DNA of 64,000 nucleotides from Chloroflexota bacterium (GTDB taxonomy: Bacteria > Chloroflexota > Limnocylindria > P2-11E). The stretch spans positions 3,727 to 67,726 of the forward strand of contig DAIDAP010000014.1 of the NCBI GenBank assembly GCA_027310565.1, in the 5' to 3' direction. The notes under the pieces are model-generated. The model ran no database searches and was not told where the DNA came from. It saw nothing but the letters and a program-made list of their open reading frames with translations. Below, piece by piece: positions 491-57,272 of this stretch. A program made the position numbers and the translations under genes. Numbering within the stretch: position 1 is the first letter of the stretch; each line of letters begins with the position of its first letter.

Positions 491-505
491 CTTCGGCCGA
501 TCGTC

Positions 506-2641: not shown

Positions 2642-3138
2642 GTCCTCCGCGTTTGCGTACGACGCCTCGCGCAACTAACGGTCGCGGCGACGTGTGCGGA
2701 GTTGGGTGCCAAGGGAGATTCCGGCGCGCGAGCATCTGGTTTGAGAATGTACGTCGATAGCTCTCGGATCTGGTCCGGCCGATCGTCTCAACGGCAACCG
2801 CATACAGCATTCGGCGCCCAGACAGCGGTTCTTCCAGGGAGCCGCTGGCTGCAAACTGACTGGGCCGGCGGTGAAGCCGCGTGACCTGCATCGTACTTCG
2901 ATGCGCGCATCGCGGAGCCCGTTAGCCCTAGCTCACTGCTCGGGCCGATCGCCTCGATGATTGCCTCATTCTTGGACTCCCGCGCAAGCTCGACCAATAG
3001 ACAAGTGCGCGCCCGCGACACAGGCGTAGGCCAGCGCCGCTCCACGCGTTGAACGGAACCGGTACGACGCGTCCGGGCCGTGCTGCCGCTGCCTCAGCTC
3101 CGCACACGCTAACCCGAAGATCGCGGAGAAGTCAGGTG

Positions 3139-4389: not shown

Positions 4390-4730
4390 CGCTTCACCGT
4401 CCTCACCACTCGTTCTCTTCGAAGTCGCTCGCGGAGTTGTTCGATCTCACCGGGGTCAAACCGCCGGCAGCTATCGATGAACACGGGCTTGAGCAACCCG
4501 GCGGCGACCATCTCGTCGAGCTTGGTCTCGCCGATCTGCAGCGCCCGCATCACGTCGTCTTCGGTCGCGAGAAGCTGACCCATGGGGAGCCAGGACGCCG
4601 TCTGTGTCGCCGACACCGTGGTCGCCTGACGCCCGCCGCGATGTGAGGCCTTGCTGGCTTCGAGCTCCCGCACGACCTCGTATGCGATTGCCCGCAGCTG
4701 CCGCCGCTGCTCGCTGGTGAACTGGTCCAT
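4386..4730 (-). CDS. excisionase-like / helix-turn-helix DNA-binding protein
   Basis: 114 aa starting at MDQFTSEQRR. The C-terminal half (MGQLLATEDDVMRALQIGETKLDEMVAAGLLKPVFI) resembles excisionase/MerR-type HTH domains. It is translationally coupled to the integrase. The longer track ORF 4386..5285 runs through a tRNA gene, so I reject the extension. Confidence 0.55.
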   Translation of the reverse strand: MDQFTSEQRRQLRAIAYEVVRELEASKASHRGGRQATTVSATQTASWLPMGQLLATEDDVMRALQIGETKLDEMVAAGLLKPVFIDSCRRFDPGEIEQLRERLRRERVVRTVKR

Positions 4731-4872
4731 GGGAGCGTGGTGGGCTGTAAATGACGCTCCGAGTGGGGGAGAATCGAAGATTGAAACCGTGGTGCCATTC
4801 CTGGTGCCAATCTCCCGGGTCGCAGCGGGTCCGGGCGGGTCGGCGCGTGTAACCAGGTGCCAGGATTTCCTC

Positions 4873-4959
4873 GGAGGGGTGGCAGAGCGGTCGAATGCGG
4901 CGGTCTTGAAAACCGCTGAGGCCTCCGGGCCTCCGTGGGTTCGAATCCCACCCCCTCCG
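4873..4959 (+). tRNA. tRNA-Ser (anticodon TGA)
   Basis: GGAGGGG acceptor pairs with CCCCTCC. Anticodon stem GCGGT/ACCGC encloses loop CTTGAAA, giving anticodon TGA. There is a long variable arm (GAGGCC-TCCG-GGCCTC) and T-arm GTGGG-TTCGAAT-CCCAC. No encoded CCA. Confidence 0.85.
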
Positions 4960-5018
4960 CATTTTGTTGGGGTTTTCGCGCGTTCCGCGGTCGCGTGAAT
5001 CGAGCAGCGCAGTCTCGT

Positions 5019-5060
5019 ACAGCCAACGTACAGCCAACGGGTCGTGACAAGGCGGGACTT
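5019..5060 (+). repeat. copy A of a roughly 45-nt motif containing tandem GTACAGCCAACG units, downstream of tRNA-Ser
   Basis: gtacagccaacgtacagccaacgggtcgtgacaaggcgggac. Two further copies are at 11631-11690 and 11870-11915. Confidence 0.5.
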
Positions 5061-5077
5061 CTCGTGACGAGTCGGGG

Positions 5078-5455
5078 TCAGGGCTCGAGTGCATCGAGCA
5101 TGCGGTTGAGCTCGGCCTGCATCTCCGCGATCGTCCGCCGAAGCAGTCTGACCTTCTCCCAGGACGGCCCATTCGTGGACGCGCGATGGGGGCGAGCAGT
5201 GCCTGACGCCGTCGGAACGAGCCAGGGCGTCAGGCAAACCGAGCAGAGAAGGCGTTCCTTCGTCTGACCTTGTTCCGCGGCCCACTCCTCGAAGACTTTC
5301 TTCTCGGCCGCGAGCTCGTCAGGGTCTCCGCGGGCCTCGGCGCGCGCGAGCGCGAGTTCATGGCGCGCCTGATCCTCAGCCGTGATCGTACAGACCACGT
5401 AAGTTGTCGAGATCATCTGCAGCCCGCTGCCACGGCAACGCGGGTAGCTTGGCAC
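5078..5455 (-). CDS. hypothetical protein
   Basis: 125 aa ORF with plausible composition and no family I recognise. It sits between the tRNA and the HNH gene. Confidence 0.3.
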   Translation of the reverse strand: MPSYPRCRGSGLQMISTTYVVCTITAEDQARHELALARAEARGDPDELAAEKKVFEEWAAEQGQTKERLLCSVCLTPWLVPTASGTARPHRASTNGPSWEKVRLLRRTIAEMQAELNRMLDALEP

Positions 5456-5470
5456 TTCTGGCCTAAATGG

Positions 5471-6313
5471 CTACGCGTCGGGCTCGCGCAAGAAGGCCTC
5501 CACGTCCGCGCGCAGTTGCTTCGCGCGAAGGCGAAGCTCTTCGACTCGGAGTAGCCGTTCGGCGTCGAGTCGGCTCTCGGGCGTGGTCACGACGTGCTGG
5601 AATTTCTCCGCGTACTCACGAAGCCGGGCGATGCGCGCGGCAACGTCCTGAGCACCGGCTGCGTCCGGACTCTTCGCTGCGCGCTGAGTCAGCCATTCCT
5701 CGTAGGGCTTGCTGTGCTTGGAATCGTTGCAGGGTTGGCAGGCGGGGACCATATTGCCGAGGACCGTCTCGCCGCCCCGTGCGACCGGCACGAGGTGTTC
5801 CCACAACGTGACCTTCTCGCTACCACAGAAGACGCACGTCAGGGGTTCGCCGAAGAAAGCCAAAGCGCGATCGACTTCGGGCATCCTGAAGGCGCGACGT
5901 CCGAGGCCCTCTTGGATCGCACGCTCGAGATAGCCGAACGCAAACGAAGGGGTCATTCGGCCTGGAACCTTTGGACCGTGTGTCTTGATCGTGCTCTTGC
6001 TCGTAGCGCGACGGAGAGGTTCCCCATTGAATGCTCCAATCCTGCCGTCTGTTCCACGCACGGTTCCAGGTCGGCGATCGTCCCCTCCGAGCCATTCGAA
6101 ACGACATCCGTTGGTCCAGGTCTTCAGGGCGGCGCGGTCGCCCGCCAGCCGTCGTGCACGGAACGTCGGAGCTGGATTGGCGCCCTGCCTTTCGAGTTCG
6201 GCATCCGCGTGTTCCGCCTCTTGAGCCGTTCGAGCGAGATCCCAAGCTGGCCGGCCGGCGGCCACGCAGCGCGAAACGACGAAGCCTCGCAGCGATTGAC
6301 TCGCCATCGTCAC
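5471..6313 (-). CDS. HNH endonuclease domain protein
   Basis: The C-terminal half contains CVFCGSEKVTLWEHLVPVARGGETVLGNMVPACQPCNDSKH, which is the HNH ββα-metal motif (C..C....H....N....C..C..N..H). Confidence 0.65.
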   Translation of the reverse strand: MTMASQSLRGFVVSRCVAAGRPAWDLARTAQEAEHADAELERQGANPAPTFRARRLAGDRAALKTWTNGCRFEWLGGDDRRPGTVRGTDGRIGAFNGEPLRRATSKSTIKTHGPKVPGRMTPSFAFGYLERAIQEGLGRRAFRMPEVDRALAFFGEPLTCVFCGSEKVTLWEHLVPVARGGETVLGNMVPACQPCNDSKHSKPYEEWLTQRAAKSPDAAGAQDVAARIARLREYAEKFQHVVTTPESRLDAERLLRVEELRLRAKQLRADVEAFLREPDA

Positions 6314-6504
6314 CCCAGCCTCCTTGTCGTGCCCAGCTCCGTAATGCAGGTTGACGTGAACCCGCTCGCTTGCGGGGGGGGGTCCGTTTCTAGACTTCTG
6401 GTGTCTTGTTGGTCTTCATCTCCCACAACCACGCTCAGAAGATTCTGGCGCGAAGCCTGGCAATGTCGCTTGCATCGCTGGGAGAGGGTGTCTGGATCGA
6501 GTCG

Positions 6505-6738
6505 CTATGGGCCAGCGCGCACACGGGTCTGCCATCGCCGCAAAGCGACACCCGACCAAATCAGCTCGACCACACCGAACGGCCAAGCGCCTTGGAGAAA
6601 TCCGTAAGCTGCCGCGGCGACGCACGCCGCCGCGAAGCCGATGACGAAGGCAGGAGAGCGTGACTCGAACGCGTACGTCACGAGCATCGACGTCACCGCG
6701 ACGATCCCGTAGCCCGTCAGTAGATCCATCGAGGCCAA
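6505..6738 (-). CDS. small hydrophobic (two-TM) hypothetical protein
   Basis: 77 aa with two clear hydrophobic stretches. The annotation is from composition only. Confidence 0.3.
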   Translation of the reverse strand: MASMDLLTGYGIVAVTSMLVTYAFESRSPAFVIGFAAACVAAAAYGFLQGAWPFGVVELIWSGVALRRWQTRVRAGP

Positions 6739-6778
6739 TCCATTTGGGCCGAACGAAGGAGGTTCGGCCGTAGCTCAC

Positions 6779-7072
6779 CTACCTGAGATCGTCCTGATCC
6801 CTTCTAGCGTCCGGCCACGAGAAGCGCACAACGCACGCTTCGCCGTGATCGACGTCGAGGCAGAAGCCGTAGTAGCGGGCCAGACGCCTTGCGAGCGCGA
6901 AGAATGGCAGCACCTGGTCCGGATGGACGTGGCACTGGGAGGTGATCGATCGAGCCATGAACGGCGGCATCTTTGCGAGGGTCCCAGCGGCGTGCTCGAG
7001 CTGATCCGCAGCGTCATCGTCCAGGCCGTCCTCATCGACGAGCGCCTGGAACCCTACGTCGAGCTCGTCCAT
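6779..7072 (-). CDS. hypothetical acidic protein
   Basis: 97 aa ORF rich in D/E, between the small membrane ORF and the response regulator. No recognised family. Confidence 0.25.
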   Translation of the reverse strand: MDELDVGFQALVDEDGLDDDAADQLEHAAGTLAKMPPFMARSITSQCHVHPDQVLPFFALARRLARYYGFCLDVDHGEACVVRFSWPDARRDQDDLR

Positions 7073-7138
7073 GCATCCGGTCTAGGCGATGAATCTCAAC
7101 TGCCCCTCAACACGAACGCGTGACTCCTCAATGCGTCC

Positions 7139-7858
7139 TTACAGAACGGCCGTGCTCCCAGCATCACGAGCCAGCAGCCGATAGCCGACGCCGGACTCGG
7201 TCTGGAGATAGCGGCCGTGGCGTGCGTCCGGCTCGAGCTTGCGCCGCAGGCGCGCGACGTAGACGTGGAGGTAGTGCGCTTCGGACCCCGCCTCCGGTCC
7301 CCAGACCGCCTCGAGCAGCATGCGCGCGGTCAGCACCCGGTTCGGATTGCGGATGAAGACCCGCAGCAGCTCGAACTCTGTCCGCGTCAGTCGCACCTCG
7401 CGCCCACCGACGGTGACGATCCGGCTCTCGAGGTCCACCGCGAGCTCGCCCGTACGGAAGATGGGAGCGGCGCCCGTCGCGGGTCGGGCCGCGTGCCGCA
7501 GCACGACCCGGACGCGCGCGAGAAGCTCTTCGACGCTGAACGGCTTGGTCAGGTAATCGTCCGCCCCGAGGTCGAGCGCCTTGACCTTGTCTTGGTCAGC
7601 CCCGCGCGCCGACAGCACGATGACCGGCGTCTGCGACTCCTGGCGCAGCGCGCGGACCACCGTGAACCCGTCGGCGTCCGGGAGGCCGAGGTCCAGGATC
7701 ACGACGTCCGGGTGATTCGAGCGGTAGGAGCTGAGCGCTGCTGCCGAGCTTTGCGCCGCGTCGACCTGGAAATCGTGGCCTCGGAGGTTGCGCTCGAGCG
7801 AGCGCAGGATGGCGGGATCGTCGTCGATCACGAGGATGCGCGCGCCGCGCTCGCTCAT
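7139..7858 (-). CDS. OmpR/KdpE-family two-component response regulator
   Basis: Receiver domain (ILVIDDDPAILRSL...DLGLPDADG...KPF) plus a winged-helix output domain (LTRTEFELLRVFIRNPNRVLTARMLLEAVWG...YVARLRRKLE). The start overlaps the kinase stop (ATGA). Confidence 0.85.
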   Translation of the reverse strand: MSERGARILVIDDDPAILRSLERNLRGHDFQVDAAQSSAAALSSYRSNHPDVVILDLGLPDADGFTVVRALRQESQTPVIVLSARGADQDKVKALDLGADDYLTKPFSVEELLARVRVVLRHAARPATGAAPIFRTGELAVDLESRIVTVGGREVRLTRTEFELLRVFIRNPNRVLTARMLLEAVWGPEAGSEAHYLHVYVARLRRKLEPDARHGRYLQTESGVGYRLLARDAGSTAVL

Positions 7859-9444
7859 CCCGCGCGCTCGATCAGCGGCTCGTCGCGCGCAGGCGCCGCC
7901 GTCGGCGCCGGGAGCGAGAAGAGAAACCGCGCACCACCGCCCTGGCGGTTCTCGACCCAGATCCTTCCGCGGTGCGCCTCGACCAGGCCCTTTGCCACGG
8001 CGAGGCCCAGGCCGAGGCCGCTGCCCCGCGGTCCGAGGCCCGCGACACGGTAGAAGGGCTCGAACACGCGCGGGATTTCCTCGGGCGGCACGCCCGGTCC
8101 CCGGTCGGCGACCTCCACCACAACCTCCGACCCCTCGCGCCAGCAGCTGACCTCGACCGACTTGCCGGCGGGGGCATACTTCACGGCGTTCTCGATCAGG
8201 TTGGTGAGGACCTGGTCGATCTCGCTGAAATCGAGCAAGACGGGTGGCAGGTCGTCTTCGATTCGTAGGGTGATCGCGTTGCCGAGGCGCTCGACGACGT
8301 CGGCGATGAGCCCGCCGAGGTCGCGCAGCTCGCGGTCCGGCCGCAGCGCGCCGCCTTCGATTCGCGAGAGGTCGAGCAGGTTGCCGACGATGCGGTTGAG
8401 CCGCTCGGTCTGCTGCTCGATGGCCATCGCGAACTCCTCACGGTCCTCATCGGTCCACGGGACGTCGTGCTGGCGCAGGCTTCCGGCGGAGGCGAGGATC
8501 GAGGCGAGGGGGGTGCGCAGGTCGTGGGAGACCGCATTGAGCAGCGCCGACTTCAGTTCGTTGGCCTGACGCAGCAGCGCCGCATCAGTCGCGGCCTGCT
8601 GGCCCTCTGCGCGCTGCACCAGGATTCCCAGCTGCGTCGCGATGACCCCGAGGAAGCGGTTCTCCAGCTGCCCGAAGCGCGAGCCAGACGAGTCGCGTAC
8701 CAGGGTCAGCCGTCCGACAAGGCGCTGGTCGACCTGGATCGGGACCTCGTAGCGGCGCCAGGAGCCCATCGCTTCAAACGCGGGCGCCCGATTGGGCGGC
8801 ATGATCTTGATCCAGCGCCCGGTCGAGCCCGACGCGCCGTTCGTTGGCCGCTGGCCGAGGTTCATGACCTCGGTGGCTCGAGCGGAGTGCGGGCTCAGGA
8901 CGGCGGCCGCGTCCGTATCGCCCGCGACTGTGGTCTGGGCGCGTGCGCCGATCGACAGGGCGATGCCTACCGCGTTGACGTGGAGCTCGCTTCGGATCCG
9001 CTCGGCCAGCGTCTGAAGCGCGACCTCCGTCTCGGGTGCACTCATGAGCCGCAGCGTGTCGAAGAGCAAAACCGCCTCGCGCTCACGACGTTCCGCCTGC
9101 TGGGCTCGCAGTCGTTCGCGCGCGGCGAGTTGACCGGTGATGATTGCGGTGACGAGGAACAGCACGAGCGATAGCCACTCCTCTGGATCTGCGACCGTGA
9201 GCGTGTGATACGGGACGACGAAGAACCAATCGAAGATGAGGAACGCTGCGAGCGACGCGAAGATCGCCGGACCCGGGCCCAGACGTGTCGCGGTGGCCAG
9301 GATGACGATCAGGTAGAGCATCGAGATGTTCGCGATGGCGCGGCTCTCGAGCACCAAGCCGATCGCCACGCTGATCAGGCCGACCGCGACGAGCGCTATG
9401 AGGTAGCGCGGCAGGTGTGTGAACAGCGAGCGCAACTCGGCCAT
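7855..9444 (-). CDS. sensor histidine kinase, KdpD C-terminal-like (TM + GAF-like + HisKA + HATPase) lacking the KdpD N-terminal domains
   Basis: Start at MAELRSLFTHLPRY (ATG revcomp at 9442-9444). It has four hydrophobic helices, the H-box SHDLRTPL, and N/G boxes (LIENAVKYAP, DRGPGVP, GSGLGLGLA). The track ORF extends to 10665, but that part is antisense to the permease gene and I reject it. Confidence 0.8.
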   Translation of the reverse strand: MAELRSLFTHLPRYLIALVAVGLISVAIGLVLESRAIANISMLYLIVILATATRLGPGPAIFASLAAFLIFDWFFVVPYHTLTVADPEEWLSLVLFLVTAIITGQLAARERLRAQQAERREREAVLLFDTLRLMSAPETEVALQTLAERIRSELHVNAVGIALSIGARAQTTVAGDTDAAAVLSPHSARATEVMNLGQRPTNGASGSTGRWIKIMPPNRAPAFEAMGSWRRYEVPIQVDQRLVGRLTLVRDSSGSRFGQLENRFLGVIATQLGILVQRAEGQQAATDAALLRQANELKSALLNAVSHDLRTPLASILASAGSLRQHDVPWTDEDREEFAMAIEQQTERLNRIVGNLLDLSRIEGGALRPDRELRDLGGLIADVVERLGNAITLRIEDDLPPVLLDFSEIDQVLTNLIENAVKYAPAGKSVEVSCWREGSEVVVEVADRGPGVPPEEIPRVFEPFYRVAGLGPRGSGLGLGLAVAKGLVEAHRGRIWVENRQGGGARFLFSLPAPTAAPARDEPLIERAG

Positions 9445-9564
9445 TGATCCGAAGTCTCTCACCGGGCGCAGTGATCCCGAGCGTGCTCGCTTGTAGAGGA
9501 TTTGTTGAGCCGGCGCCTCGCATTTGTGAGCGGGACATGAGAACCGAGCGACAAACTGGGAGCG

Positions 9565-11622
9565 ATGGCCGAACGGCGCGAGGTGCCCGATCTCCCTGAT
9601 TTCGTTGAGCGCCGTGAGCAACAGGGCAGCCGCCCCGGCAACCGCTACGTGCGCATTGTTCGGCCGTCCCAGCGTGAGTTCACCCGCGTCGGCCCAGGCC
9701 ACGTCGTGGCGAGCGAAGCAGTGCTGGCGCCGCGTACGCCGCTCGGGCGCGTCGGCGACCGGATCCGCCAGTTCCTGTTCGGCTCGCGGATCGCGACCGC
9801 TCGCGAGATCCATGAGCGCATCGGCGTGTTCAAGGGCCTTGCGGTCTTCGCCTCGGACAACATCTCGTCCTCGGCGTACGCGACCGAAGAGATCATGCGC
9901 GTACTGGTGCTCGCGGGCGCTGGCGCGCTCACGCTCACCATGCCGATCACGATCGCGATCGTGGCGGTCCTCGGGATCGTGGTCGCGAGCTACCAGCAGA
10001 CCATCCGCGCTTACCCCAACGGCGGCGGCTCGTACATCGTCGCCAGCGACAACCTCGGCCCGGCCGCGGGGCTGACGGCCGGCGCGGCGCTGCTCACCGA
10101 CTATGTCCTGACCGTCGCGGTCTCGATCGCTGCCGGTGTCGCGGCGCTGACCTCGATCGCCCCCGAGCTCTTCGACTATCGCGTCTTGCTTGGCGTCGCG
10201 TTCGTTGCGCTCCTGGGCCTGGGGAACCTCCGCGGGATTCGGGAGAGCGCGACGCTCTTCTCGATCCCGACGTACGTGTACCTGGTCGCCATCTTCGGTC
10301 TGCTCGGCTACGGCCTCTTTCGTCTTGTCACAGGCGACCTTCCGGCGTACCAAGCGCCGCCATCTTGGAGTCAGACCGAGGGCGCCCAGGCGCTCGGCCT
10401 GGTGCTCATCCTGCGCGCGTTCGCCTCGGGTTCGGTCGCGCTCACCGGGACGGAGGCCGTCTCGAACGGAGTGCCCGCGTTCAAGCCACCGGAGTGGAGA
10501 CATGCGCAGGTCGTGCTGATCCTGATGGGCACCTTCTTCGGCGCGATCTTCCTGGGCATGAGCTTCCTCGCCGGGCAGATCGGGATCCTGCCCGACCCGA
10601 GCGAGCAGGAGACCGTGGTGAGCCAGCTCACCGCGCTGCTCGTTGGCGCGGGCTCGCCCTACCACTACCTCGTGCAGATCTCGACCGCGCTGCTCCTTGT
10701 GCTCGCCGCGAACACCGCCTTCGCCGACTTCCCGCGACTATCGAGCATCCTCGCGCGCGACGGCTTCATGCCGCGCCAGTTCTCCTACCGCGGCGATCGC
10801 TTGGCCTTCAGCATCGGGATCATCGCTCTGGCGCTGCTCGCGATCGTGCTGATAGTGGCCTTCGGCGGCAGCGTCACCAACCTCATTCCGCTGTACACGG
10901 TCGGCGTCTTCGTCGCCTTCACCCTGAGCCAGGCCGGCATGGTGCGCCACTGGTGGAAGCTGCGGCGGACCGAGCGAGGCTGGCGCACACGGGCGGCGTT
11001 CAACGGGGTCGGGGCCGTGGCGACCGGTGTGGTCGCGATCATCGTCAGCGAGGCCAAGTTCGCGCTCGGCGCGTGGATGATCATCGTGCTCATACCGGCG
11101 CTGATCGCGGTGATGTGGGGCATCCATCACCACTACCGCAGCGTCCGCGATGCGCTGGTCCTTGAGCGTCCCGACACGCCACTGCCGACGCTGGCTCCGC
11201 GCGTCGTCGTGCCGGTGAGCCGCCTCGATTACGCGACGCTGTACGCGTTGGCGTTCGCCCGCGCAATCTCGCCCGAGGCGATCGCGGTCCACGTCAGCGA
11301 GAGTCCGGAAGAAGCCGCGGAGATGCGAGGCCGCTGGGAGCGCTGGAACGGACCGGTGCCGCTGGCCATCGTCGAGTCGCCGTATCGGGTCTTGATCGCG
11401 CCACTCGTTGCCTACCTGGATGCCCTCGACAAGCAGCAGCCGGGGCGCCCGACAACCGTGGTGCTGGCGGAGTTCGTGCCGCGACACGTCTGGGAGTACG
11501 TCCTCCACAACCAGTCGTCGCTGCGACTGAAGCTACGGCTCTTCTTCAGGCGCAACACCGTCGTCGTGGACGTGCCGTATCACCTGGACGGGGTCGAACG
11601 GGCTAAGCCGCCGACGTCATAG
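9565..11622 (+). CDS. APC-superfamily (amino acid/polyamine/organocation-type) permease with a long cytoplasmic C-terminal domain
   Basis: 685 aa with about 12 hydrophobic segments starting after FASDNISSSAYATEEIMRVL, and a roughly 180 aa soluble C-terminus. It is divergent from the kinase operon. Confidence 0.75.
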   Translation: MAERREVPDLPDFVERREQQGSRPGNRYVRIVRPSQREFTRVGPGHVVASEAVLAPRTPLGRVGDRIRQFLFGSRIATAREIHERIGVFKGLAVFASDNISSSAYATEEIMRVLVLAGAGALTLTMPITIAIVAVLGIVVASYQQTIRAYPNGGGSYIVASDNLGPAAGLTAGAALLTDYVLTVAVSIAAGVAALTSIAPELFDYRVLLGVAFVALLGLGNLRGIRESATLFSIPTYVYLVAIFGLLGYGLFRLVTGDLPAYQAPPSWSQTEGAQALGLVLILRAFASGSVALTGTEAVSNGVPAFKPPEWRHAQVVLILMGTFFGAIFLGMSFLAGQIGILPDPSEQETVVSQLTALLVGAGSPYHYLVQISTALLLVLAANTAFADFPRLSSILARDGFMPRQFSYRGDRLAFSIGIIALALLAIVLIVAFGGSVTNLIPLYTVGVFVAFTLSQAGMVRHWWKLRRTERGWRTRAAFNGVGAVATGVVAIIVSEAKFALGAWMIIVLIPALIAVMWGIHHHYRSVRDALVLERPDTPLPTLAPRVVVPVSRLDYATLYALAFARAISPEAIAVHVSESPEEAAEMRGRWERWNGPVPLAIVESPYRVLIAPLVAYLDALDKQQPGRPTTVVLAEFVPRHVWEYVLHNQSSLRLKLRLFFRRNTVVVDVPYHLDGVERAKPPTS

Positions 11623-11630
11623 GCTCGGTC

Positions 11631-11690
11631 TGTACAGCCACGTGTCCAGCCAACGGGTCGGTATGAGCCGGTACGAGGCGGGACGGGCCG
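11631..11690 (+). repeat. copy B of the GTACAGCCAACG-containing motif (degenerate, with an internal duplication)
   Basis: gtacagccacgtgtccagccaacgggtcggtatgagccggtacgaggcgggacgggccgggacg. It matches copies A and C in the blocks cagccaacgggtcgg and gcgggac. Confidence 0.45.
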
Positions 11691-11757
11691 GGACGACGAA
11701 CTCGGACAACGTTCGAGAACACTCGAAATCGCTAAGGTTCGCGAAGGCCACACGCCA

Positions 11758-11813
11758 TCTTGGAAACCGCTGAAGCCGCAAGGCTTCCGTGGGTTCGAAT
11801 CCCACCCCCTCCG
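11758..11813 (+). repeat. partial tRNA-Ser 3' half (anticodon-loop to acceptor end), direct repeat of the 3' half of tRNA-Ser at 4873-4959; candidate att-site remnant
   Basis: cttggaaaccgctgaagccgcaaggcttccgtgggttcgaatcccaccccctccg matches the tRNA from the anticodon loop to the discriminator. The variable arm carries compensatory changes (GAAGCC/GGCTTC versus GAGGCC/GGCCTC). No 5' acceptor strand or D arm is present upstream. Confidence 0.55.
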
Positions 11814-11869
11814 CATTTTGCCCGTCAGTGCGCGCGTTTCGCGGCCGCGTTAGCTGAATGGCGCGGTCT

Positions 11870-11915
11870 TGTACAGGCAACGTACAGCCAACGGGTCGGG
11901 ATGAAGCGGGACGAG
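11870..11915 (+). repeat. copy C of the GTACAGCCAACG-containing motif
   Basis: gtacaggcaacgtacagccaacgggtcgggatgaagcgggacgag, nearly identical to copy A. Confidence 0.5.
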
Positions 11916-11922
11916 TCGCTCC

Positions 11923-13185
11923 TCACTCACCGAAGCGGGTCCGGCGGAAGAGCGCGAGCCCGAGCAGGCCGGCGAGCGCGAGCAGCGTGCCGCCGCTCCA
12001 GAAGAGGGGCTCGATCCCGAAGCGGTCGACGAAGACCCCTCCGATTGCGAGCGACAGCAGGGTGAAGATGCTCCAGTCCATGTCCAGGAGCGTGAAGACG
12101 CGGCCGCGCACCGCGTCCGGGATGGCCCCCTGGATCGTGGAGTTGAAGACGACCATCCCGGTCGAGGTGTTCAAACCGTAGATGAAGAGGATGGCGAGGG
12201 CGATCGGCAGCGGCGTGAACACGGCGATGAGCACGTCGCCGATGCCGCGGATGAGGTACGGCACGAAGAGCCAGCGAGCGCTGCGGTGGTCGCGCGCGAG
12301 GGCGTTGGGGATCAAGGGACCCAGGAGCGCGCCGACGCCGATCGCGCCGATGAGGGTGGCGAAGCCTTCGGGCGGCAGCCGCAGGTGGCGCTCCGAGAGG
12401 ACCACGAGCATCGCGCCGGTCGCCCCGACCGCGAAAGCCGCGAGCGACTGCACCAGCAATAGCCGCGAGACGAAGGCATCCCGCGCCGCGTAGGAGAGGC
12501 CGCGGCGCAGGTCCACCCAGAAACGCCGGAGCGCGCCGCCGGCGTCGCCGCCCGCCACCGGCGCCTGGCGGGGGATCCGCAGCAGCGCGATGAGCGCCGC
12601 CGAGGCGACGAAGCTCGCGGCGTTCAGGGCGAACGCCGCGCTCGTCCCGACGAGGGCGAGGATCCCCGCGGCGACGGAGGCGCCGACGATCTGAACGAGC
12701 TGTGCGGTCGACCAGCTGACCGAGTTCGCCGCGAGACGCTGCCGCTCCGTCGTGAGCGCAGGAAGGACCGCGTTCACCGTGGGGTTGAAGAAGACCCCGG
12801 CGGCGGAGAGCCCCGCGGCGACGAGGTAGGCGTGCCAGACGCCCTGCGGCCACACCAGCGAGAGCGCGAGCGCGCCACGGACGAGGTCGGCGCCGATGAG
12901 GACGCCCTTTCGGCTGAAGCGGTCGATGACCACGCCCGCGACCGGGCCCAAGGCGAGCACCGGGATCGTCTCGGTGGCGACGAGGCCGGCGACGGCGAGG
13001 CCCTGGCCCGAGAGCTCGAACACGAGCACGACGAGCGCGATGTAGTGGAGGGTGTCGCCGAAGTTGGAGATGAGCTGACCGAGCCACAGCGGGAAGTAGC
13101 GGCGGCTGCGCGCGACCGCGCTGTAGTCGGCGACCACCGAAGCGACGCGGCGCGGCAGGGAGAGCCCGGTCGGCGCTTCACTCAC
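11923..13185 (-). CDS. MFS transporter (EntS/enterobactin-exporter-like family)
   Basis: 420 aa with about 12 TM segments. The N-terminus (YFPLWLGQLISNFGDTLHYIAL) is typical of MFS_3/EntS-like transporters. Confidence 0.75.
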   Translation of the reverse strand: MSEAPTGLSLPRRVASVVADYSAVARSRRYFPLWLGQLISNFGDTLHYIALVVLVFELSGQGLAVAGLVATETIPVLALGPVAGVVIDRFSRKGVLIGADLVRGALALSLVWPQGVWHAYLVAAGLSAAGVFFNPTVNAVLPALTTERQRLAANSVSWSTAQLVQIVGASVAAGILALVGTSAAFALNAASFVASAALIALLRIPRQAPVAGGDAGGALRRFWVDLRRGLSYAARDAFVSRLLLVQSLAAFAVGATGAMLVVLSERHLRLPPEGFATLIGAIGVGALLGPLIPNALARDHRSARWLFVPYLIRGIGDVLIAVFTPLPIALAILFIYGLNTSTGMVVFNSTIQGAIPDAVRGRVFTLLDMDWSIFTLLSLAIGGVFVDRFGIEPLFWSGGTLLALAGLLGLALFRRTRFGE

Positions 13186-49639: not shown

Positions 49640-50493
49640 CGCGTGTCGTCGTCGGCGCGCAGGTCTCGGGCGCGGGCGGCGTCTCGCGCGCCGTCGGGCG
49701 CGCGATCGACATCGGCGCGCGCGCGGTGCAGGTGTTCGTCGATCCGAACCGCCGCTATCCGCGCGCCGAGCTGCCGCTCTCCGAGCTCGACCTGCTCGGC
49801 GCCTCGCTGCGCCAAGCGGGCATGGGCGGGATCGTCCACGTTCCGTACCTCGCGAACGTCGCGACGGCCGACGCCCTGCTGCGCTCGCGATCGATCGAGA
49901 TGGTCGGGCGCGCGCTGCGGGCGGCCGGCCACGCGGGCCTGTCGGCGGTCGTCGTGCACCCCGGCTCGCACCGCGGACGGGGCTTCGAGGCGGTGCGCGA
50001 GGGGCTCGTGCTCGCGCTGGCCGAGGCGGCGCGTGATGCCGCCGTCGACGTCCCGCTGCTCCTCGAGAACACCGCCGGCGCCGGCGGGCACATCGGCGGC
50101 GGCGTCGCCGAGCTGCGCTGGCTCCTCGACGCGCTGGATCGCGCCGGCGTGCGCTGCGGGCTGTGCCTGGATCTCGCCCACGCCCACGCCGAGGGCTGGG
50201 ACCTCGGCCGCGCGAGCGGCGTCGCGGCGCTCGAGCGCGAGTGGCGCGACGCCGGGCTCATCGATCGGGTCGCGCTGGTGCACGCCAACGACTCACGGGC
50301 CGCGGCGGGCTCGCACCGTGACCTGCACGCCAACCCCGGCGAGGGGACCATCGGACGGCGCGGGCTGCGTCTCGTCGGCCGCGTCGCCGAGCTGCGCCGC
50401 GTGCCGTGGATCCTCGAGGTGCCGGGGAAGGAGCGGTCCGGCCCGCGGCGCACCGACGTGCGCCGCCTCGATCACATCCTGAACACGCCGTAG
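49567..50493 (+). CDS. nfo: endonuclease IV (Nfo; xylose-isomerase-like TIM barrel); start codon uncertain
   Basis: Blocks [53 protein letters not shown] and ILEVP match the Nfo metal-ligand motifs. The only in-frame ATG upstream (49567) overlaps the receiver gene by 73 nt. A non-canonical start near 49636-49642 is an alternative. Confidence 0.65.
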
Positions 50494-52055
50494 CGCGGCT
50501 GGCCGATCGGCGCGTGGCGCGCCGCGGCGATCCCCAGGGCGAGGACCGTGCGCGTGTCGAGCGGGTCGATGACCCCGTCGTCCCAGAGCCGCGCGGTGGA
50601 GTAGTACGGCGAGCCCTGCGTCTCGTACTGCTCGCGGATCTTCGCCTGGAAGCGCCCGCGCTCCTCCTCGCTCTGGAACGTCCCGACCATGGACAGGACC
50701 GTCGCGGCCTGCTCGCCGCCCATCACGCTGATGCGGGCGTTCGGCCACATCCAGAGCTGGCGGGGCTGATACGCGCGGCCGGCCATGCCGTAGTTCCCCG
50801 CGCCGAAGCTCCCGCCGACGATGACCGTGAACTTCGGGACCACGCTGCAGGCGACCGCGGTGACCATCTTCGCGCCGTCCTTCGCGATGCCGCCGCTCTC
50901 GTACTCCCGGCCGACCATGAACCCGGAGACGTTCTGGAGGAACACCAGCGGGATGCCGCGCTGGTCGCAGAGCTCGATGAAGTGCGCCGCCTTGAGCGCC
51001 GACTCGCTGAAGAGGACGCCGTTGTTGGCGACGATGCCGACGCGGAAGCCCTCGATCCGCGCGAAGCCGCACAGGATGGTCGTGCCGTAGAGCGCCTTGA
51101 ACTCGTGGAGCTCCGAGCGGTCGACCAGGCGCGCGACGATCTCGTGGGCGTCCACCTGCGTGCGGATGTCGCGCGGGATCGCGGCGTAGAGGTCGCCCGG
51201 GTCGAGCGCGGGAGGCTCGGGTGCGGCGCGGTCGCCCTCCCAGAGGATCGGCCGGTCGAGCTGCGCGACCATGTCGCGCGCGATCTCGATCGCGTGCTGG
51301 TCGTTCAGCGCCAGGTGGTCCGCCACGCCGGACACGCGCGTGTGCACGTCCGCGCCGCCGAGCTCCTCCGCGGTGACGTCGACGCCCGTCGCGGCCTTCA
51401 CCAGCGGTGGCCCGCCGATGAAGATCGTCCCCTGACCCTTCACGATGACCGTCTCGTCGCTCATCGCCGGGACGTAGGCGCCGCCCGCGGTGCACGAGCC
51501 CATCACGAGGGCGAGCTGCGGCACGCCGGCGGCCGAGAGGCGCGCCTGGTTGTAGAAGATGCGCCCGAAGTGGTCGCGGTCCGGGAACACCTCGTCCTGC
51601 CGCGGCAGGAACGCGCCGCCGGAGTCGACGAGGTAGACGCACGGGAGCCGGTTCTCGAGCGCGATCTCCTGCGCGCGCAGGTGCTTCTTCACCGTGAGGG
51701 GGTAGTACGACCCGCCCTTCACCGTCGCGTCGTTCGCGACGATCACGCAGGTCACGCCGCTCACGCGCCCGACGCCGGTGATGAGCCCCGCACCGGGGGC
51801 CTCGTCGTCGTACAGGCCGGTGGCGGCGAGCGGCGAGAGCTCGAGGAACGCGCTCCCCGGATCGAGGAGCCGCTCGACGCGGTCGCGCGGCAGCAGCTTC
51901 CCGGCCGCGACGTGGCGCTGGCGCGCGCGCTCGGGACCGCCCAGCCGCGCCCGCGCGAGGCGCTCGCGGAGGTCGGCGACGAGGTCGCGCATCGCCTCGC
52001 GGCTCTCCCGCGCGGGCGCGCTCGTCGTGTCGAGCGTGCTCGTCAGGACCGGCAC
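50472..52055 (-). CDS. carboxyltransferase (β) subunit of an acyl-CoA carboxylase (methylcrotonyl-CoA carboxylase β-type)
   Basis: 527 aa with both CoA-carboxyltransferase halves ([19 protein letters not shown]...; ...[21 protein letters not shown]...[11 protein letters not shown]). Confidence 0.85.
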
Positions 52056-52429: not shown

Positions 52430-53119
52430 GTGGACGTGGACGTTCGCGCCGCGGTCGAGCGGAGCTTCCTCGCGGCCCTGCCGGCGGCCGCGCTCGATCG
52501 CCTGCTCGCCGGGGCCACGGCCGAGGACGTCGCCGCGGGCACGCTGACCTACCGGGGCGGGCGCGAGCCGCGGCCCGCGCTCATCGTGCGCGGGCTCATG
52601 CGGACGTACTTCGCCGGCCACGACGGCCGCCAGGCCACCGTCCGCTACGCGCGCGAGGGCGACGTCCTGGGTGTCGTGGCCGCCGCCGGCGGGCCGGCCC
52701 CGCTCAACTCGCAGGCGCTCACGGACACGAAGCTGCTACGGCTCGACGCGGAGGTGCTGCGCGACCTCGCGCGCCAGGATGTCGAGGTCGCGTTCGCGCT
52801 CGTCGAGGAGCTCACGCAGACCGTGTACGCGCTGTGGCACGAGATCGCGGCGGCGGCCTTCGCGACCGTCCCGCAGCGCGTCGCCCGGCACCTGCTGGAG
52901 ATCGCCGCGCGCGAGCAGCAGAGCGAGGGCGACGCGCTCGTCGCGCACGTGTCGCAGCAGGAGCTCGCCGATCTCGCCGGGACCGTCCGCGAGGTGGTCG
53001 CGCGGGCGCTGCGCGAGCTGCGCGACGACGGCGTCGTGCGCGTCGGCCGGCAGGGCATCGTCGTGACCGATCCCGCTTCGCTCGCGGCCCGCGCCTGGCC
53101 GCGTGACGGAGGTCACTGA
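52430..53119 (+). CDS. Crp/Fnr-family transcriptional regulator
   Basis: cNMP-binding-like β-roll, then a C-terminal HTH (VSQQELADLAGTVREVVARALRELRDDGVV). GTG start. Confidence 0.7.
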   Translation: MDVDVRAAVERSFLAALPAAALDRLLAGATAEDVAAGTLTYRGGREPRPALIVRGLMRTYFAGHDGRQATVRYAREGDVLGVVAAAGGPAPLNSQALTDTKLLRLDAEVLRDLARQDVEVAFALVEELTQTVYALWHEIAAAAFATVPQRVARHLLEIAAREQQSEGDALVAHVSQQELADLAGTVREVVARALRELRDDGVVRVGRQGIVVTDPASLAARAWPRDGGH

Positions 53120-53163: not shown

Positions 53164-54441
53164 TTGCTCGACGCGCTGCGCTTCCGCGACTTCCGCTACT
53201 TCTGGGCCGGCTTGACCGTCTCCAGCATCGGCGCGTGGATGCAGGTCTTCGCCCTGGGCATCCTCGTCGTGCAGATCGCCGAGCGCGACGGCGTGCCGGA
53301 GCTGGCGCCGCTGTACCTCGGGCTCATGGGCCTCGCGCGCGCCGTCCCCGGTCTCCTGTTCACGCTCGTCGCCGGCGCGGTCGCCGACCGGGTCGATCGC
53401 CGCGGGCTGCTGCTCGCCACGCAGTCGATCATGGCGCTCAACGCCGGCGTGCTCGCCGTGCTCGCGTTCCTCGGCGCGGCGGCGCTCTGGAGCGTGCTCC
53501 TCGCCGCGACGATCCAGTCGGCCGCTTTCGCCTTCGACAATCCCTCGCGCCAGTCGATGGTGCCGCGTATCGTCCCCATGCCGTTCCTGCCGAGCGCGAT
53601 CGGCCTGCAGTCCGCGGCGTTCAACGGCGCGTCGATCGTCGGTCCGGTCGTCGCCGGCGCGCTCTACGTCCCGATCGGCATCCCCGGCCTGCTCGCCGCC
53701 AACGCGCTCTCGTTCGCCGCCATCCTCGGCGCGCTCGCCGTGCTCCCGGCGATCCCGACGAGCGGGACGCCGACGCGCTCGCTCCTCGCGAGCGTGGGCG
53801 AAGGCGCGCGCTACGTGCGCGCGAATGCCGTGCTGGTGTGGATCCTCGTCCTGTCGGGCACCCTGTTCGTCGCCGCCGGCCCGACCAGCGCGCTCCTGCC
53901 AGCCGTCGCCGGCGACACCTTCTGGAACGGCATGAGCCTGCTGTCGCTGCTCCTCACCGCGATGGGCGCGGGCGCGTTCGCCGCGGCGCTCGTGGTCATG
54001 AACGTCCGCCGCGTCCGGTCGCTCGGGAGCGTGTTCACGCTCGCCGCGATGCTCAACGGCGGCGCGCTCGTGCTGTTCGCGCTCTCGAACGCGCCGGAGC
54101 TGGGGCTCCTGTTCGCGCTCCTGACCGGATTCGGGGGCACGCTCCTGGCCGGGATGGGGAACAACATGCTGCAGGCGACGACCGACGACGCGTACCGCGG
54201 ACGCGTGATGAGCGTCTGGGCTTTCCTCTTCATCGGTCTGATGCCGGTCGGCCAGCTCGCGCTCGGCGCGCTCGGCTCGCTGCTGGGCATCCGTGCCGCC
54301 CTCGCGCTCGGCGGCGCCGTCGCGTTCGCGGCGGGGCTGTACGCGCGCGTGCGCGTGCCCGCGCTGAGCGCGTGGCGAGCGCCCTCGCACGTTGGGGCGA
54401 TCGCCCAGACGGCGGCGGTCAGGCGGCCGACGTTCCGGTAG
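53164..54441 (+). CDS. MFS transporter
   Basis: 425 aa, 12 TM. FRDFRYFWAGLTVSSIGAWMQVFALGILV is the typical N-terminus of the MFS_3/DHA3-like subfamily. Confidence 0.8.
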   Translation: MLDALRFRDFRYFWAGLTVSSIGAWMQVFALGILVVQIAERDGVPELAPLYLGLMGLARAVPGLLFTLVAGAVADRVDRRGLLLATQSIMALNAGVLAVLAFLGAAALWSVLLAATIQSAAFAFDNPSRQSMVPRIVPMPFLPSAIGLQSAAFNGASIVGPVVAGALYVPIGIPGLLAANALSFAAILGALAVLPAIPTSGTPTRSLLASVGEGARYVRANAVLVWILVLSGTLFVAAGPTSALLPAVAGDTFWNGMSLLSLLLTAMGAGAFAAALVVMNVRRVRSLGSVFTLAAMLNGGALVLFALSNAPELGLLFALLTGFGGTLLAGMGNNMLQATTDDAYRGRVMSVWAFLFIGLMPVGQLALGALGSLLGIRAALALGGAVAFAAGLYARVRVPALSAWRAPSHVGAIAQTAAVRRPTFR

Positions 54442-54455
54442 AATCGTTCGCGTCA

Positions 54456-54529
54456 GACCCCGTAGCTCAGTGGATCAGAGCGACAGGTTGCGGACCTGTA
54501 GGTCGGAGGTTCGAGTCCTCTCGGGGTCG
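54456..54529 (+). tRNA. tRNA-Arg, anticodon read as GCG
   Basis: Acceptor GACCCCG pairs with CGGGGTC. D-arm GCTC-AGTGGATCAGA-GAGC has an A at the Arg-identity position 20. Anticodon stem ACAGG/CCTGT encloses loop TTGCGGA. T-arm GGAGG-TTCGAGT-CCTCT. Discriminator G. Confidence 0.7.
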
Positions 54530-54549
54530 CGGTCACCATCGGTGTCGAC

Positions 54550-54623
54550 GACCCCGTAGCTCAGTGGATCAGAGCAGCACCCTTCGAAGGTGTTGGTCGC
54601 GCGTTCGAATCGCGCCGGGGTCG
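54550..54623 (+). tRNA. tRNA-Arg, anticodon read as TCG
   Basis: The 5' 25 nt (acceptor strand and D-arm) are identical to the upstream tRNA. Anticodon stem GCACC/GGTGT encloses loop CTTCGAA. T-arm GCGCG-TTCGAAT-CGCGC. Same acceptor 3' strand and G discriminator. Confidence 0.7.
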
Positions 54624-54644
54624 CCGATCAGCCGGACCGCTCCG

Positions 54645-55088
54645 ATGACCTCCCAGCTCCACGCCACGCTGCCGGTCGTCGAACCCGGCCGCACCGAGAT
54701 CCACGTACCGCGCTGGGAAGGCGTCGAGCAGCAGCATGGTTTCGTGCGCGGCGGCGTGGTCGGCATGATCGCCGATTCGGCTGCCGGCCATGCGGCGCTG
54801 ACGCTGGTCTCCGCCTCGGCGTCGGTGCTGACCGTGGAGTACAAGATGAGCCTGGTCGCCCCGGCCGATGGCGAGAAGCTGATCGCCCGGGGCAGAGTGG
54901 TACGTCATGCACGGGAAGAGCGAAGAGTAGTCGAGAGCGTCAGTACGCCGCGCCGCCCGCCGAGACGCGGCCGCGGAAGCGCGCGTACACGAAGAGCGTG
55001 TAGAAGAGCACGAGCGGCATCCCCACGAGCGCGACGACGAGCATCGTCCGCAGCGTCAGCTCGGACGACGCCGCGTTCTCCACCGTGA
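54645..55088 (+). CDS. PaaI-like hotdog thioesterase, probably truncated or degenerate at the C-terminus
   Basis: The first roughly 85 aa (GFVRGGVVGMIADSAAGHAALTL...VLTVEYKMSLVAPADGEKLIARGRVV) match PaaI-family thioesterases. The remaining roughly 60 aa are Arg/Pro-rich and overlap the convergent cydB 3' end by about 150 nt. Confidence 0.35.
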   Translation: MTSQLHATLPVVEPGRTEIHVPRWEGVEQQHGFVRGGVVGMIADSAAGHAALTLVSASASVLTVEYKMSLVAPADGEKLIARGRVVRHAREERRVVESVSTPRRPPRRGRGSARTRRACRRARAASPRARRRASSAASARTTPRSPP

Positions 55089-55950
55089 GGCTGCGCGCCG
55101 CGTCGGTCGCGGGGAGCACGTCGGGGTACAGCGCGAGCGCGGCGATGGCGAGCAGCCCAGCGATCGCGAGCGACGACGCGGCGAACGCCGTGCCGTCCCG
55201 GCCCCGGGAGACCGCCCAGAAGAACGCGGCGAGGGCGGCCGCGACGACCAGCGGCGCCGCGAGCCCCACCGGGCCGAGCGCGAGATCGCGCGGGTCCGGC
55301 ACCGCGAGCGCCGCGATCGTGACGAGCAGCCACACGCCGGCGAACGCCGCGGCGCCGGCCGCGGCGGCCACGCGCGCCCGGCGCCGGACCTCGCCCTCGG
55401 TCTTGAGCGCGAGCCACGCGCCGCCCTGCATCACGAACATCGCGAGCGCGAGGACCCCGGTGAGGAGCGGCAGCGGTCCGAGCAGCCCGAGGAGCCCGCC
55501 ACGGTACGTGCCGTCCGCCTCGAGCGGAAGCCCCTGCAGCACGTTGCCGACGGCGACGCCGAAGAGGAGCGACGGCACCAGCGAGGACACCGAGAACAGG
55601 ACGTCCCAGGTGCGGCGCCACCCGGCCGAGTCGTCCTTGTCGCGGACCTCGAGCGAGATCGCGCGGAAGATGAGCCCGAGAAGCACGAGGATGAGGGCGA
55701 GGTAGAAGCCCGAGAACACCGTCGCGTACACGAGCGGGAACGCCGCGAAGAGGGCGCCGCCGGCGGTGATGAGCCAAACCTCGTTGCCGTCCCACACCGG
55801 TGCGATGCTCGCGATGACCGCGCGGCGCTCGGCGTCGTCGCGCGCGACGAGGAGATGCAGGATGCCGGCGCCGAGATCGAAGCCGTCGAGCACGGCGTAG
55901 CCGATGAGGAGCAGGGCCACCAGGACGAACCAGATCGTCGGGAGATCCAT
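54940..55950 (-). CDS. cydB: cytochrome bd ubiquinol oxidase subunit II
   Basis: 336 aa, about 8 TM, with the typical start MDLPTIWFVLVALLLIGYAVLDGFDLGAGIL. It starts 3 nt after the cydA stop. The 800-aa track ORF extension is off-frame to cydA and I reject it. Confidence 0.85.
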   Translation of the reverse strand: MDLPTIWFVLVALLLIGYAVLDGFDLGAGILHLLVARDDAERRAVIASIAPVWDGNEVWLITAGGALFAAFPLVYATVFSGFYLALILVLLGLIFRAISLEVRDKDDSAGWRRTWDVLFSVSSLVPSLLFGVAVGNVLQGLPLEADGTYRGGLLGLLGPLPLLTGVLALAMFVMQGGAWLALKTEGEVRRRARVAAAAGAAAFAGVWLLVTIAALAVPDPRDLALGPVGLAAPLVVAAALAAFFWAVSRGRDGTAFAASSLAIAGLLAIAALALYPDVLPATDAARSLTVENAASSELTLRTMLVVALVGMPLVLFYTLFVYARFRGRVSAGGAAY

Positions 55951-55952
55951 CG

Positions 55953-57272
55953 TCAAGCCTCCCCGGGGCCGCGCAGCACCTCGCGGCGGACGAGCGCGAG
56001 CCAGAGCCACGCGATCACGAGGTACGCGGCCGCGAACAGCGCGAGCGAGATCCCCAGATCCAGCGCGGTGACGTTGGGCGAGACGCCGCTCTCGGTGCGC
56101 AGCACGCCGTAGACGATCCACGGCTGCCGGCCGACCTCCGCGGTGAACCAGCCGAGCTGGATGGCGACGACGGGGATCGGGATCGACCACAGGAACGCGG
56201 TGAGCCAGCCCCGGTGCGACTCGAGGGTGCCGCGCCAGACGAGGACGGCGAGCACGAGGACCTCGAGCAGCATCAGCGTGCCGAGGATGACCATGTTGTG
56301 GTACGCGAGGAACGTGAGCGCGACGGGCGGCCAGTCCGCCGCGGGGAACTCCGACAGGCCTCGGACCGTCGCGGTGACGTTCCCGAACGCGAGCAGGCTG
56401 AGCAGCCGCGTCACGACGATCTCCGGCGCCCGCGCCGCGGCGGACGGATCCTGCGCGGGCGGAAGCGACCAGAGGACGAGCGGCGCGCCGGCGGTCGTGC
56501 TGTACAGACCCTGCATCGCGGCGAACTTCGCCGCCTGGGTGTACGCGACCTGGCGGGCGCTCTGGTCGCCGGTCACGAAGACGAGCACGATGCCGGCGAG
56601 CGCCAGCGCGAGCGCGACGCGGATCGACGCGAGCGCGACGTCGCGGCTGCGGCGTCGCAGGAGGTAGAAGGCGGAGATGCCGATGACGAGGAACGCCCCC
56701 GCGACCCACGTCGCGACGACAGTGTGCGCGAAGCGCTGGAGCGTCGACGGGTTGAAGACCGCCGCCCAGAAGTCGGTGAGCCACGCGCGGCCGCCCGCGA
56801 TCTCGAAGCCGGCCGGCGTCTGCATCCAGGAGTCGGCCACGATGATCCAGAACGCCGAGAGCGTGGAGCCGAGCGCCACGAGCACGGCCGCGAGCCAGCG
56901 CAGCCGCGAGGAGACGCGGTCGCGTCCGAACAGCAGCACACCCAGGAAGGTGGACTCGAGGAAGAAGGCGAAGAGGCCCTCCGCCGCGAGCGGCGCGCCG
57001 AACAGGTCGCCGACGAAGGCGGCGTAGCGGGCCCAGTTCGTGCCGAACTCGAACTCCAAGACCACGCCCGTGGCGACGCCCATCACGAAGGTGAGGCCGA
57101 AGATGCGCGTCCAGAAGAGCGCCGTCCGGTCCCAGAGCGGGTCGCCCGTGCGCCAGCGCAGCGTCTCGAAGACCGCGATGAGCAGGCCGAGACCGATGGT
57201 GAGCGTGGGGAAGAGGAAGTGGAACATGACGGTCATCGCGAACTGCACACGCGCGAGGATCACGGGATCCAT
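55953..57272 (-). CDS. cydA: cytochrome bd ubiquinol oxidase subunit I
   Basis: MDPVILARVQFAMTVMFHFLFPTLTIGL is the canonical CydA N-terminus with the heme-ligand His. A Q-loop region and GRQPW motif are present near the C-terminus. Confidence 0.85.
   Translation of the reverse strand: MDPVILARVQFAMTVMFHFLFPTLTIGLGLLIAVFETLRWRTGDPLWDRTALFWTRIFGLTFVMGVATGVVLEFEFGTNWARYAAFVGDLFGAPLAAEGLFAFFLESTFLGVLLFGRDRVSSRLRWLAAVLVALGSTLSAFWIIVADSWMQTPAGFEIAGGRAWLTDFWAAVFNPSTLQRFAHTVVATWVAGAFLVIGISAFYLLRRRSRDVALASIRVALALALAGIVLVFVTGDQSARQVAYTQAAKFAAMQGLYSTTAGAPLVLWSLPPAQDPSAAARAPEIVVTRLLSLLAFGNVTATVRGLSEFPAADWPPVALTFLAYHNMVILGTLMLLEVLVLAVLVWRGTLESHRGWLTAFLWSIPIPVVAIQLGWFTAEVGRQPWIVYGVLRTESGVSPNVTALDLGISLALFAAAYLVIAWLWLALVRREVLRGPGEA

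Follow-up and report, generated by a model that had tools for sequence, protein, structure and literature searches.

Introduction

The pairing of tRNA-Arg(GCG), with G34, and tRNA-Arg(UCG), with U34, is the decoding scheme described for bacteria that do without tRNA-Arg(ACG) and TadA (PMC3711424, PMC8007984, PMC8629427, PMC6063277). Yokobori et al. (2013) described, for the Mycoplasma pneumoniae group, the replacement of ACG by GCG and UCG together with the loss of tadA (PMC3711424); there G34 serves the CGY codons and U34 the CGR codons, instead of ICG and CCG, and the GCG gene is considered to have arisen from an ACG gene by point mutation. GCG was reported in place of ACG in all sequenced Thermotogae and Spirochaetes by Ehrlich et al. 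(PMC8007984), and Shulgina and Eddy, citing Rafels-Ybern (2019), noted that CPR bacteria have no ACG and rely on GCG together with UCG and CCG (PMC8629427). At a broader scale, Diwan and Agashe inferred several independent losses of TadA, each going along with the loss of ACG and the presence of non-target tRNAs, and found that most TadA-positive bacteria have no GCG and that loss of ACG tracks loss of TadA (PMC6063277). The anticodon-loop motif of TadA substrates has been given as YUACGAA (PMC12255301).

Here we describe a tandem of tRNA-Arg(GCG) and tRNA-Arg(UCG) genes in a 64-kb stretch of DNA from a Chloroflexota bacterium, referred to below as the window. The anticodon pair is that of the Mycoplasma pneumoniae group, but the setting differs, the Mollicutes having low GC, reduced genomes, few CGN codons and a documented tadA loss, whereas the organism of the window belongs to the Chloroflexota, is of a free-living type from soil or fresh water and has 73% GC and CGC as its commonest Arg codon, and its GCG gene differs from its ACG ortholog at 21 positions. 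As in Thermotogae, Spirochaetes and CPR bacteria, G34 would replace A34/I34 for Arg, with UCG and/or CCG covering CGA and CGG; those groups are described as having a fixed state, whereas among Limnocylindria-like Chloroflexota a single orthologous slot holds sometimes ACG and sometimes GCG in organisms whose linked MccB proteins are 82-93% identical. With the E. coli tRNA-Arg2 and TadA system the window GCG gene shares the isotype, the codon box, A20, C35 and G36, and it differs in its loop, UUGCGGA, and in that it would read CGC and CGU without deamination.

Results

The tandem tRNA-Arg genes

Both ARAGORN and the Rfam model RF00005 agreed with the initial annotation in recognizing two tandem tRNA-Arg genes, with anticodons GCG and TCG, 20 nt apart. 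The tRNA-Arg(GCG) gene lies at 54456-54529 of the forward strand (tRNA-Arg(gcg), 54456-54530, according to ARAGORN) and the tRNA-Arg(UCG) gene at 54550-54623 of the same strand (tRNA-Arg(tcg), 54550-54625), and direct reading of the sequence gives the forward-strand spacer between them as CGGTCACCATCGGTGTCGAC (54530-54549). The RF00005 scores, 68.5 bits for the GCG gene and 67.8 bits for the TCG gene, compare with a gathering score of 29, and both genes correspond to the full model (positions 1-71) with zero non-standard pairs. By direct reading, the anticodon GCG occupies 54490-54492 within the loop UUGCGGA, and TCG occupies 54584-54586 within the loop CUUCGAA. An earlier worry that the anticodon-loop registration might be shifted was thus dispelled, the loops, ARAGORN and Rfam all supporting the original registration, and the possibility of ACG/CCG anticodons or of another isotype was likewise removed when ARAGORN, run on the region, returned GCG and TCG with isotype Arg.

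The GCG gene has the acceptor stem GACCCCG/CGGGGTC, a 9-nt D-loop, AGUGGAUCA, with A20, the anticodon stem ACAGG/CCUGU, G37, the T-stem GGAGG/CCUCU and the discriminator G73. The TCG gene has the same acceptor stem and D-arm, followed by the anticodon stem GCACC/GGUGU, A37, the T-stem GCGCG/CGCGC and again G73; CCA is encoded in neither gene. The reported identity of the 5' halves and of the 3' acceptor strand was borne out, with the correction that the shared 5' segment is 26 nt long (GACCCCGTAGCTCAGTGGATCAGAGC) and not 25; the 3' acceptor strand and discriminator are also identical (CGGGGTCG), and the 17 differences between the two genes all fall within tRNA positions 26-65. The arginine identity elements known from recognition by E. 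coli ArgRS, namely C35, G36, A20 and a purine at position 73 (here G73), are present in both genes, and on these predicted elements and the cloverleaf both qualify as bacterial elongator tRNA-Arg.

In an alignment of 13 related GCG and ACG genes, 13 of the 21 cloverleaf pairs showed double-sided compensatory changes, and the window GCG gene kept all 21 pairs, which argues that it is under selection and not a relic. The same tandem sequence was found on metagenome contigs assembled separately from two sequencing runs (L001, L002), so it is not the error of one assembly. The tandem genes belong to a total of four tRNA genes detected by ARAGORN in the 64 kb.

Genomic context and putative promoter of the tRNA pair

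The G+C content of the window is about 73%, and that at the tRNA pair, 0.72, agrees with its surroundings. Upstream of the pair lie, in order, the gene for MccB (methylcrotonyl-CoA carboxylase beta; 50472-52055, reverse strand), 2.4 kb away, a Crp/Fnr regulator (52430-53119, forward) and an MFS transporter (53164-54441, forward), and downstream lie cydB and cydA (54940-57272, reverse). A conserved forward-strand block, GTTCCGGTAGAAT (54432-54444), carries the -10-like box TAGAAT (54439-54444), ends 11 nt 5' of the first tRNA gene and overlaps the MFS transporter gene at its TAG stop codon. Of the two closest relatives described below, L131 has the identical block and L124 has it with one mismatch (CTTCCGGTAGAAT), and a TAGAAT or TACAAT box stands at equal distance in the related loci L133-L137 and L147. 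A sigma-70 scan of the locus with a generic consensus returned no full promoter, and a consensus scan for an intrinsic terminator of the tRNA pair found none. We regard the block as the putative promoter of a two-tRNA operon, and the pair would be co-transcribed either from the TAGAAT box or by read-through from the MFS gene. The spacers of related tandems vary in length and sequence, from 7 nt (L133) to 29 nt (L147); those of the window and L133 both start with CGGTCA.

Gene order beside the tRNA operon is unstable between relatives. The cydAB genes, directly 3' of the tRNAs in the window, lie between the Crp and mccB genes in L125 (7602-9936), and L124 (2955-4187) and L127 have an unannotated gene of 410-413 aa at the corresponding place. 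Just 3' of the tRNA pair, a forward-strand ORF (54645-55088) is similar to a hotdog/PaaI thioesterase over the first three quarters of the latter; it scores 30.5 bits with TIGR00369 (cutoff 36.6), has no Pfam match, runs into the 3' end of the opposite-strand cydB and is not called as a gene on L001, and may be what a rearrangement has left of a gene. At the other end of the window, a phage-family tyrosine integrase (3139-4389, reverse strand; PF00589, 71 bits) is encoded some 480 bp away from a tRNA-Ser(TGA) gene (4873-4960, forward) and is accompanied by an HNH endonuclease ORF (5471-6313). The GC content of positions 1-12000 is 0.64-0.68, against 0.70-0.77 in the remainder, and these first 12 kb look like an integrative element at the tRNA-Ser gene.

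Codon usage and decoding of the CGN box

Arginine codons were counted in the confident genes of the window, chosen by GC3, giving CGC 985, CGG 431, CGU 130, CGA 116, AGG 69 and AGA 17; in these genes CGC and CGU make up about 64% of the Arg codons, and CGA and CGG about 31%. By standard wobble rules, tRNA-Arg(GCG) would use G34 to read CGC, through G:C pairing, and CGU, through G:U wobble, while tRNA-Arg(UCG) would read CGA and CGG via U34, probably alongside a CCG species encoded elsewhere. In the GCG species, G37 beside G36 suggests methylation to m1G37 by TrmD. Judging from its loop, with G34, U32 and G37, the window GCG tRNA cannot be a TadA substrate. The CGN box is most likely decoded without inosine by the GCG/UCG pair, as had been proposed for these genes; this TadA-independent scheme is already documented, and the earlier finding, as it was stated, is ordinary.

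No tRNA-Arg(ACG) was present among the four tRNA genes detected by ARAGORN in the 64 kb, nor did a six-frame search of the same 64 kb reveal a HAE...PCxxC deaminase motif. A tblastn search with an approximate E. coli TadA query had no match in the window or in the related loci L124-L132, which together represent a small fraction of the genomes. Over the window and all the loci searched with it, this query gave one match, in L020, which was rejected as TadA at 68.6 bits against an NCBIfam TadA cutoff of 150. The product of this L020 gene (1337-1876, reverse strand), from a Chloroflexi MAG, is a CDA-fold deaminase with 33% identity to E. coli TadA, encoded some 60-200 bp, depending on the start codon, from a tRNA-Arg(GCG) gene; it is probably another nucleoside deaminase. 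We consider that ACG has probably been lost from the genome of the window and hold the loss of tadA to be likely too, with slightly less assurance; the ACG/TadA system would now be dispensable or absent there.

tRNA-Arg(ACG) occupies the same slot in close relatives

Relatives were sampled by fetching the surroundings of MccB homologs, and the close homologs (80-87% identity) that carried a name were mostly labelled Candidatus Limnocylindria, Limnocylindrales or Chloroflexota; on this basis the window is assigned to the Chloroflexota and most likely to the class Limnocylindria (Ellin6529). Eight related assemblies have tRNA-Arg(ACG) in the slot held by GCG in the window; ACG-bearing assemblies include GCA_040960765.1, GCA_041643075.1, GCA_005880935.1 and GCA_050695075.1. 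The ACG-TCG loci are L124, L131, L125, L127-L130, L132 and L147. The closest relatives, L131 and L124, encode MccB proteins 92.7% identical to that of the window (ungapped columns) and share with it the order of the MFS, Crp and MccB genes and the tandem layout, with an ACG first gene whose loop is CUACGAA. In L125, L127-L130 and L132 (MccB 86-88%) the ACG and TCG genes are 1-2 kb apart, and L147, a named Limnocylindria MAG (MccB 82%), has an ACG-TCG tandem. The ACG loop is CUACGAA in L124, L131, L125, L127 and L132, and CUACGGA in L147; CUACGAA fits the TadA motif, whereas the window loop does not. Synteny and the GTTCCGGTAGAAT block together show that the slot of the window is orthologous to that of the ACG-TCG loci. 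The synteny is not universal, as no tRNA gene lies close by at five of the MccB loci (L126, L145, L146, L148 and L149).

The family is variable at position 37: the ACG gene of L147 (3242-3315) has G37 (loop CUACGGA), and the loop CUUCGGA is found in the TCG genes of L147 (3138-3212) and L136 (155-229), the other TCG genes having A37. The anticodon stem CUUGC/GCAAG of the ACG genes in L124 (4285-4453), L131 (2118-2280) and L132 is also one of the common anticodon stems of GCG genes in Chloroflexota, mainly Anaerolineales; with ACG and GCG genes sharing one anticodon stem, both versions occur on one backbone in the phylum.

Backbone phylogeny and tRNA similarity disagree

A metagenome scan for tandems with GCG as the first gene recovered five more contigs with a GCG-TCG tandem (L133-L137, 63-73% GC), three of which are linked to mccB. 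A neighbour-joining tree of MccB was used as the backbone phylogeny, which is therefore that of one linked gene. In this tree the window grouped with L131 and L124 (bootstrap 100/100), and the GCG-bearing L133 and L135 formed, with P0120, a separate clade (100/100).

The tRNA genes showed another pattern. The window TCG gene is identical to that of L133 at 74 of 74 positions, as opposed to 3 differences from L131 and 4 from L124, which include one compensatory 30:40 pair. The window GCG gene differs from the other GCG genes at 8 (L134), 11 (L083) and 13 (L133) positions, no sampled GCG allele being identical to it, and from the slot-orthologous ACG genes of L131 and L124 at 21 of 74, the changes affecting the anticodon stem (four of its five pairs), positions 32, 34 and 37 of the loop, the length of the D-loop and the T-stem. 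These results show a conflict between the backbone, which belongs to an ACG clade, and the tRNA genes, whose sequences resemble those of the GCG clade. They give a weak indication of the donor (for the TCG gene, 0 differences as against 3-4), tRNA genes being short and recombining. Within L124 and L131 the ACG and TCG genes have identical T-arms and 3' ends, while the window pair shares its 5' half, and exchange between tandem paralogs seems, from these patterns, to occur in this group.

Distribution of tRNA-Arg(GCG)

A degenerate pattern describing GCG genes of this type was run against species-representative genomes, and matches were confirmed with ARAGORN; the pattern detects GCG genes only and says nothing on ACG elsewhere in those genomes. 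tRNA-Arg(GCG) was confirmed in 117 of the 120 matches listed, a lower bound of 117 species loci; among these matches they came overwhelmingly from Chloroflexota, where they spanned Chloroflexia, Roseiflexaceae, Anaerolineae/Anaerolineales, Dehalococcoidia and Caldilineae/Caldilineaceae, with a few loci from Armatimonadota, Fraserbacteria, Bipolaricaulota and Patescibacteria. Among the same listed matches, the GCG genes have conserved, clade-specific gene contexts, and no ACG gene was present in the 8-kb blocks around cellular GCG loci. GCG is thus a common state in Chloroflexota, and the earlier description of the anticodons as atypical does not hold for GCG in this phylum. We found no open-access paper stating the use of tRNA-Arg(GCG) for Chloroflexi, and Iyer (2011) has nothing specific on TadA in this group.

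GCG genes also occur in tRNA arrays. A scan of viral contigs yielded seven GCG-carrying arrays, all with at least 10 mismatches to the window gene and lower GC, and a phage origin was rejected. Two IMG/VR contigs (L140 and L142) carry tRNA-Arg(GCG) and tRNA-Arg(ACG) about 470 bp apart, and ARAGORN also reports on L140 a suppressor-like tRNA with the anticodon tta. Two Gammaproteobacteria MAGs (L092 and L122) and Myxococcus eversor (L107) have 11-22 tRNA genes within 8 kb, including tRNA-Arg(GCG), although ACG is the usual gene in their phyla; these clusters resemble accessory or mobile arrays. An archaeal origin, considered as archaea use GCG, was also discarded, since both the genes next to the pair and the close homologs of their proteins are bacterial, from Chloroflexota/Limnocylindria.

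Discussion

The reading that we favor, with a probability of roughly 0.7, is that the tandem is a functional inosine-free tRNA-Arg operon in which ACG was recently replaced, via recombination, by a GCG-type cassette. The resident ACG gene of the operon slot would have been exchanged in a short replacement by homologous recombination or gene conversion, with the homology supplied by the two invariant ends of these tRNA genes, their first 15 nt and their 3' acceptor strand. The presence of tRNA genes resembling those of the GCG clade on an ACG-clade backbone makes a recent recombinational replacement the most likely explanation. The initial annotation had suggested a duplication followed by arm replacement; the locus is indeed a mosaic, but one best read as an ACG gene replaced by a GCG-type cassette.

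Other histories of the GCG gene have to be set against this one. Local duplication of one tRNA-Arg gene, with subsequent replacement of the anticodon and T arms, would account for the identity of the first 26 nt and of the 3' acceptor strand, and for the 9-nt D-loop AGUGGAUCA common to both genes, the loop of the L133 GCG gene having 8 nt; the T-arms and 3' ends shared by the ACG and TCG genes of L124/L131 also suggest that tandem paralogs exchange sequence. The 5' identity, however, is mostly conservation across the whole family and does not point to a local duplication of recent date: 6 of 6 GCG and 12 of 12 TCG genes from the related loci compared begin with the same 15 nt, GACCCCGTAGCTCAG, and these, together with the 3' acceptor strand, invariant as well across related GCG/TCG genes, have no dating value. 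Tandems of GCG or ACG with TCG are, moreover, old and widespread, and the window GCG gene has fewer differences from foreign GCG alleles (8-13) than from its neighbor (17), which makes duplication a rather improbable origin. Even less can be said for an in-place A34-to-G34 mutation of the resident ACG gene, as proposed for the Mycoplasma pneumoniae group. It is a published route in Mollicutes (PMC3711424), and the slot, acceptor stem and upstream block are conserved with ACG operons, but the distance of 21 positions out of 74 to the ACG genes of L131/L124, when the adjacent TCG gene has only 3-4 differences, excludes a simple change of this kind, and we consider the in-place route very improbable.

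The replacement reading also has to face the question of whether the GCG gene matters for decoding at all. It could be a redundant extra isoacceptor in a cell where ACG and TadA are encoded elsewhere and decoding is still inosine-based: the examined part of the genome is 64 kb, close relatives have TadA-type ACG genes, so that the recent ancestor probably had TadA, and some tRNA arrays of phages (L140, L142) contain both GCG and ACG. Against such redundancy, GCG stands here in the very slot that ACG occupies in eight related assemblies, no ACG gene accompanies GCG in the fetched cellular loci among the matches listed, and GCG is absent from most TadA-positive bacteria, ACG loss tracking TadA loss (PMC6063277); we therefore hold it to be unlikely, while according it some real weight. 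As for an artefact, in the form of a chimera from assembly or binning, or else an accessory tRNA of a phage or mobile element, tRNA-Arg(GCG) does occur in phage arrays, and unrelated bacteria have it in large arrays of tRNA genes, and the gene order just 3' of the pair differs between relatives. Nevertheless, the identical tandem on separately assembled contigs from two runs, the local GC of 0.72, in agreement with that of the surrounding window, the lack of mobile-element genes flanking the pair and the 10 mismatches to the nearest viral GCG tRNA, from contigs with a GC of about 0.60-0.62, leave this explanation with hardly any credibility.

A broader proposal, to which we give a little less than an even chance, is that in Limnocylindria the first gene of this operon has switched between ACG and GCG at least twice, and very recently, by cassette exchange using the invariant tRNA ends. 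If so, the organism of the window would be a freshly converted lineage, and its comparison with sister MAGs (about 93% identity in MccB) would show whether tadA has been lost, retained for another role or is decaying, a fate that would be seen just after the loss of its only tRNA substrate. The new detail that this locus contributes is the occurrence of ACG and GCG in the same operon slot of otherwise close relatives. Such sister pairs offer material on how bacteria give up, or regain, dependence on the otherwise essential TadA, bear on whether a very high GC content, with CGC dominant and CGA rare, favors G34, and suggest that the identity of an anticodon can change by cassette exchange instead of by point mutation of the anticodon.
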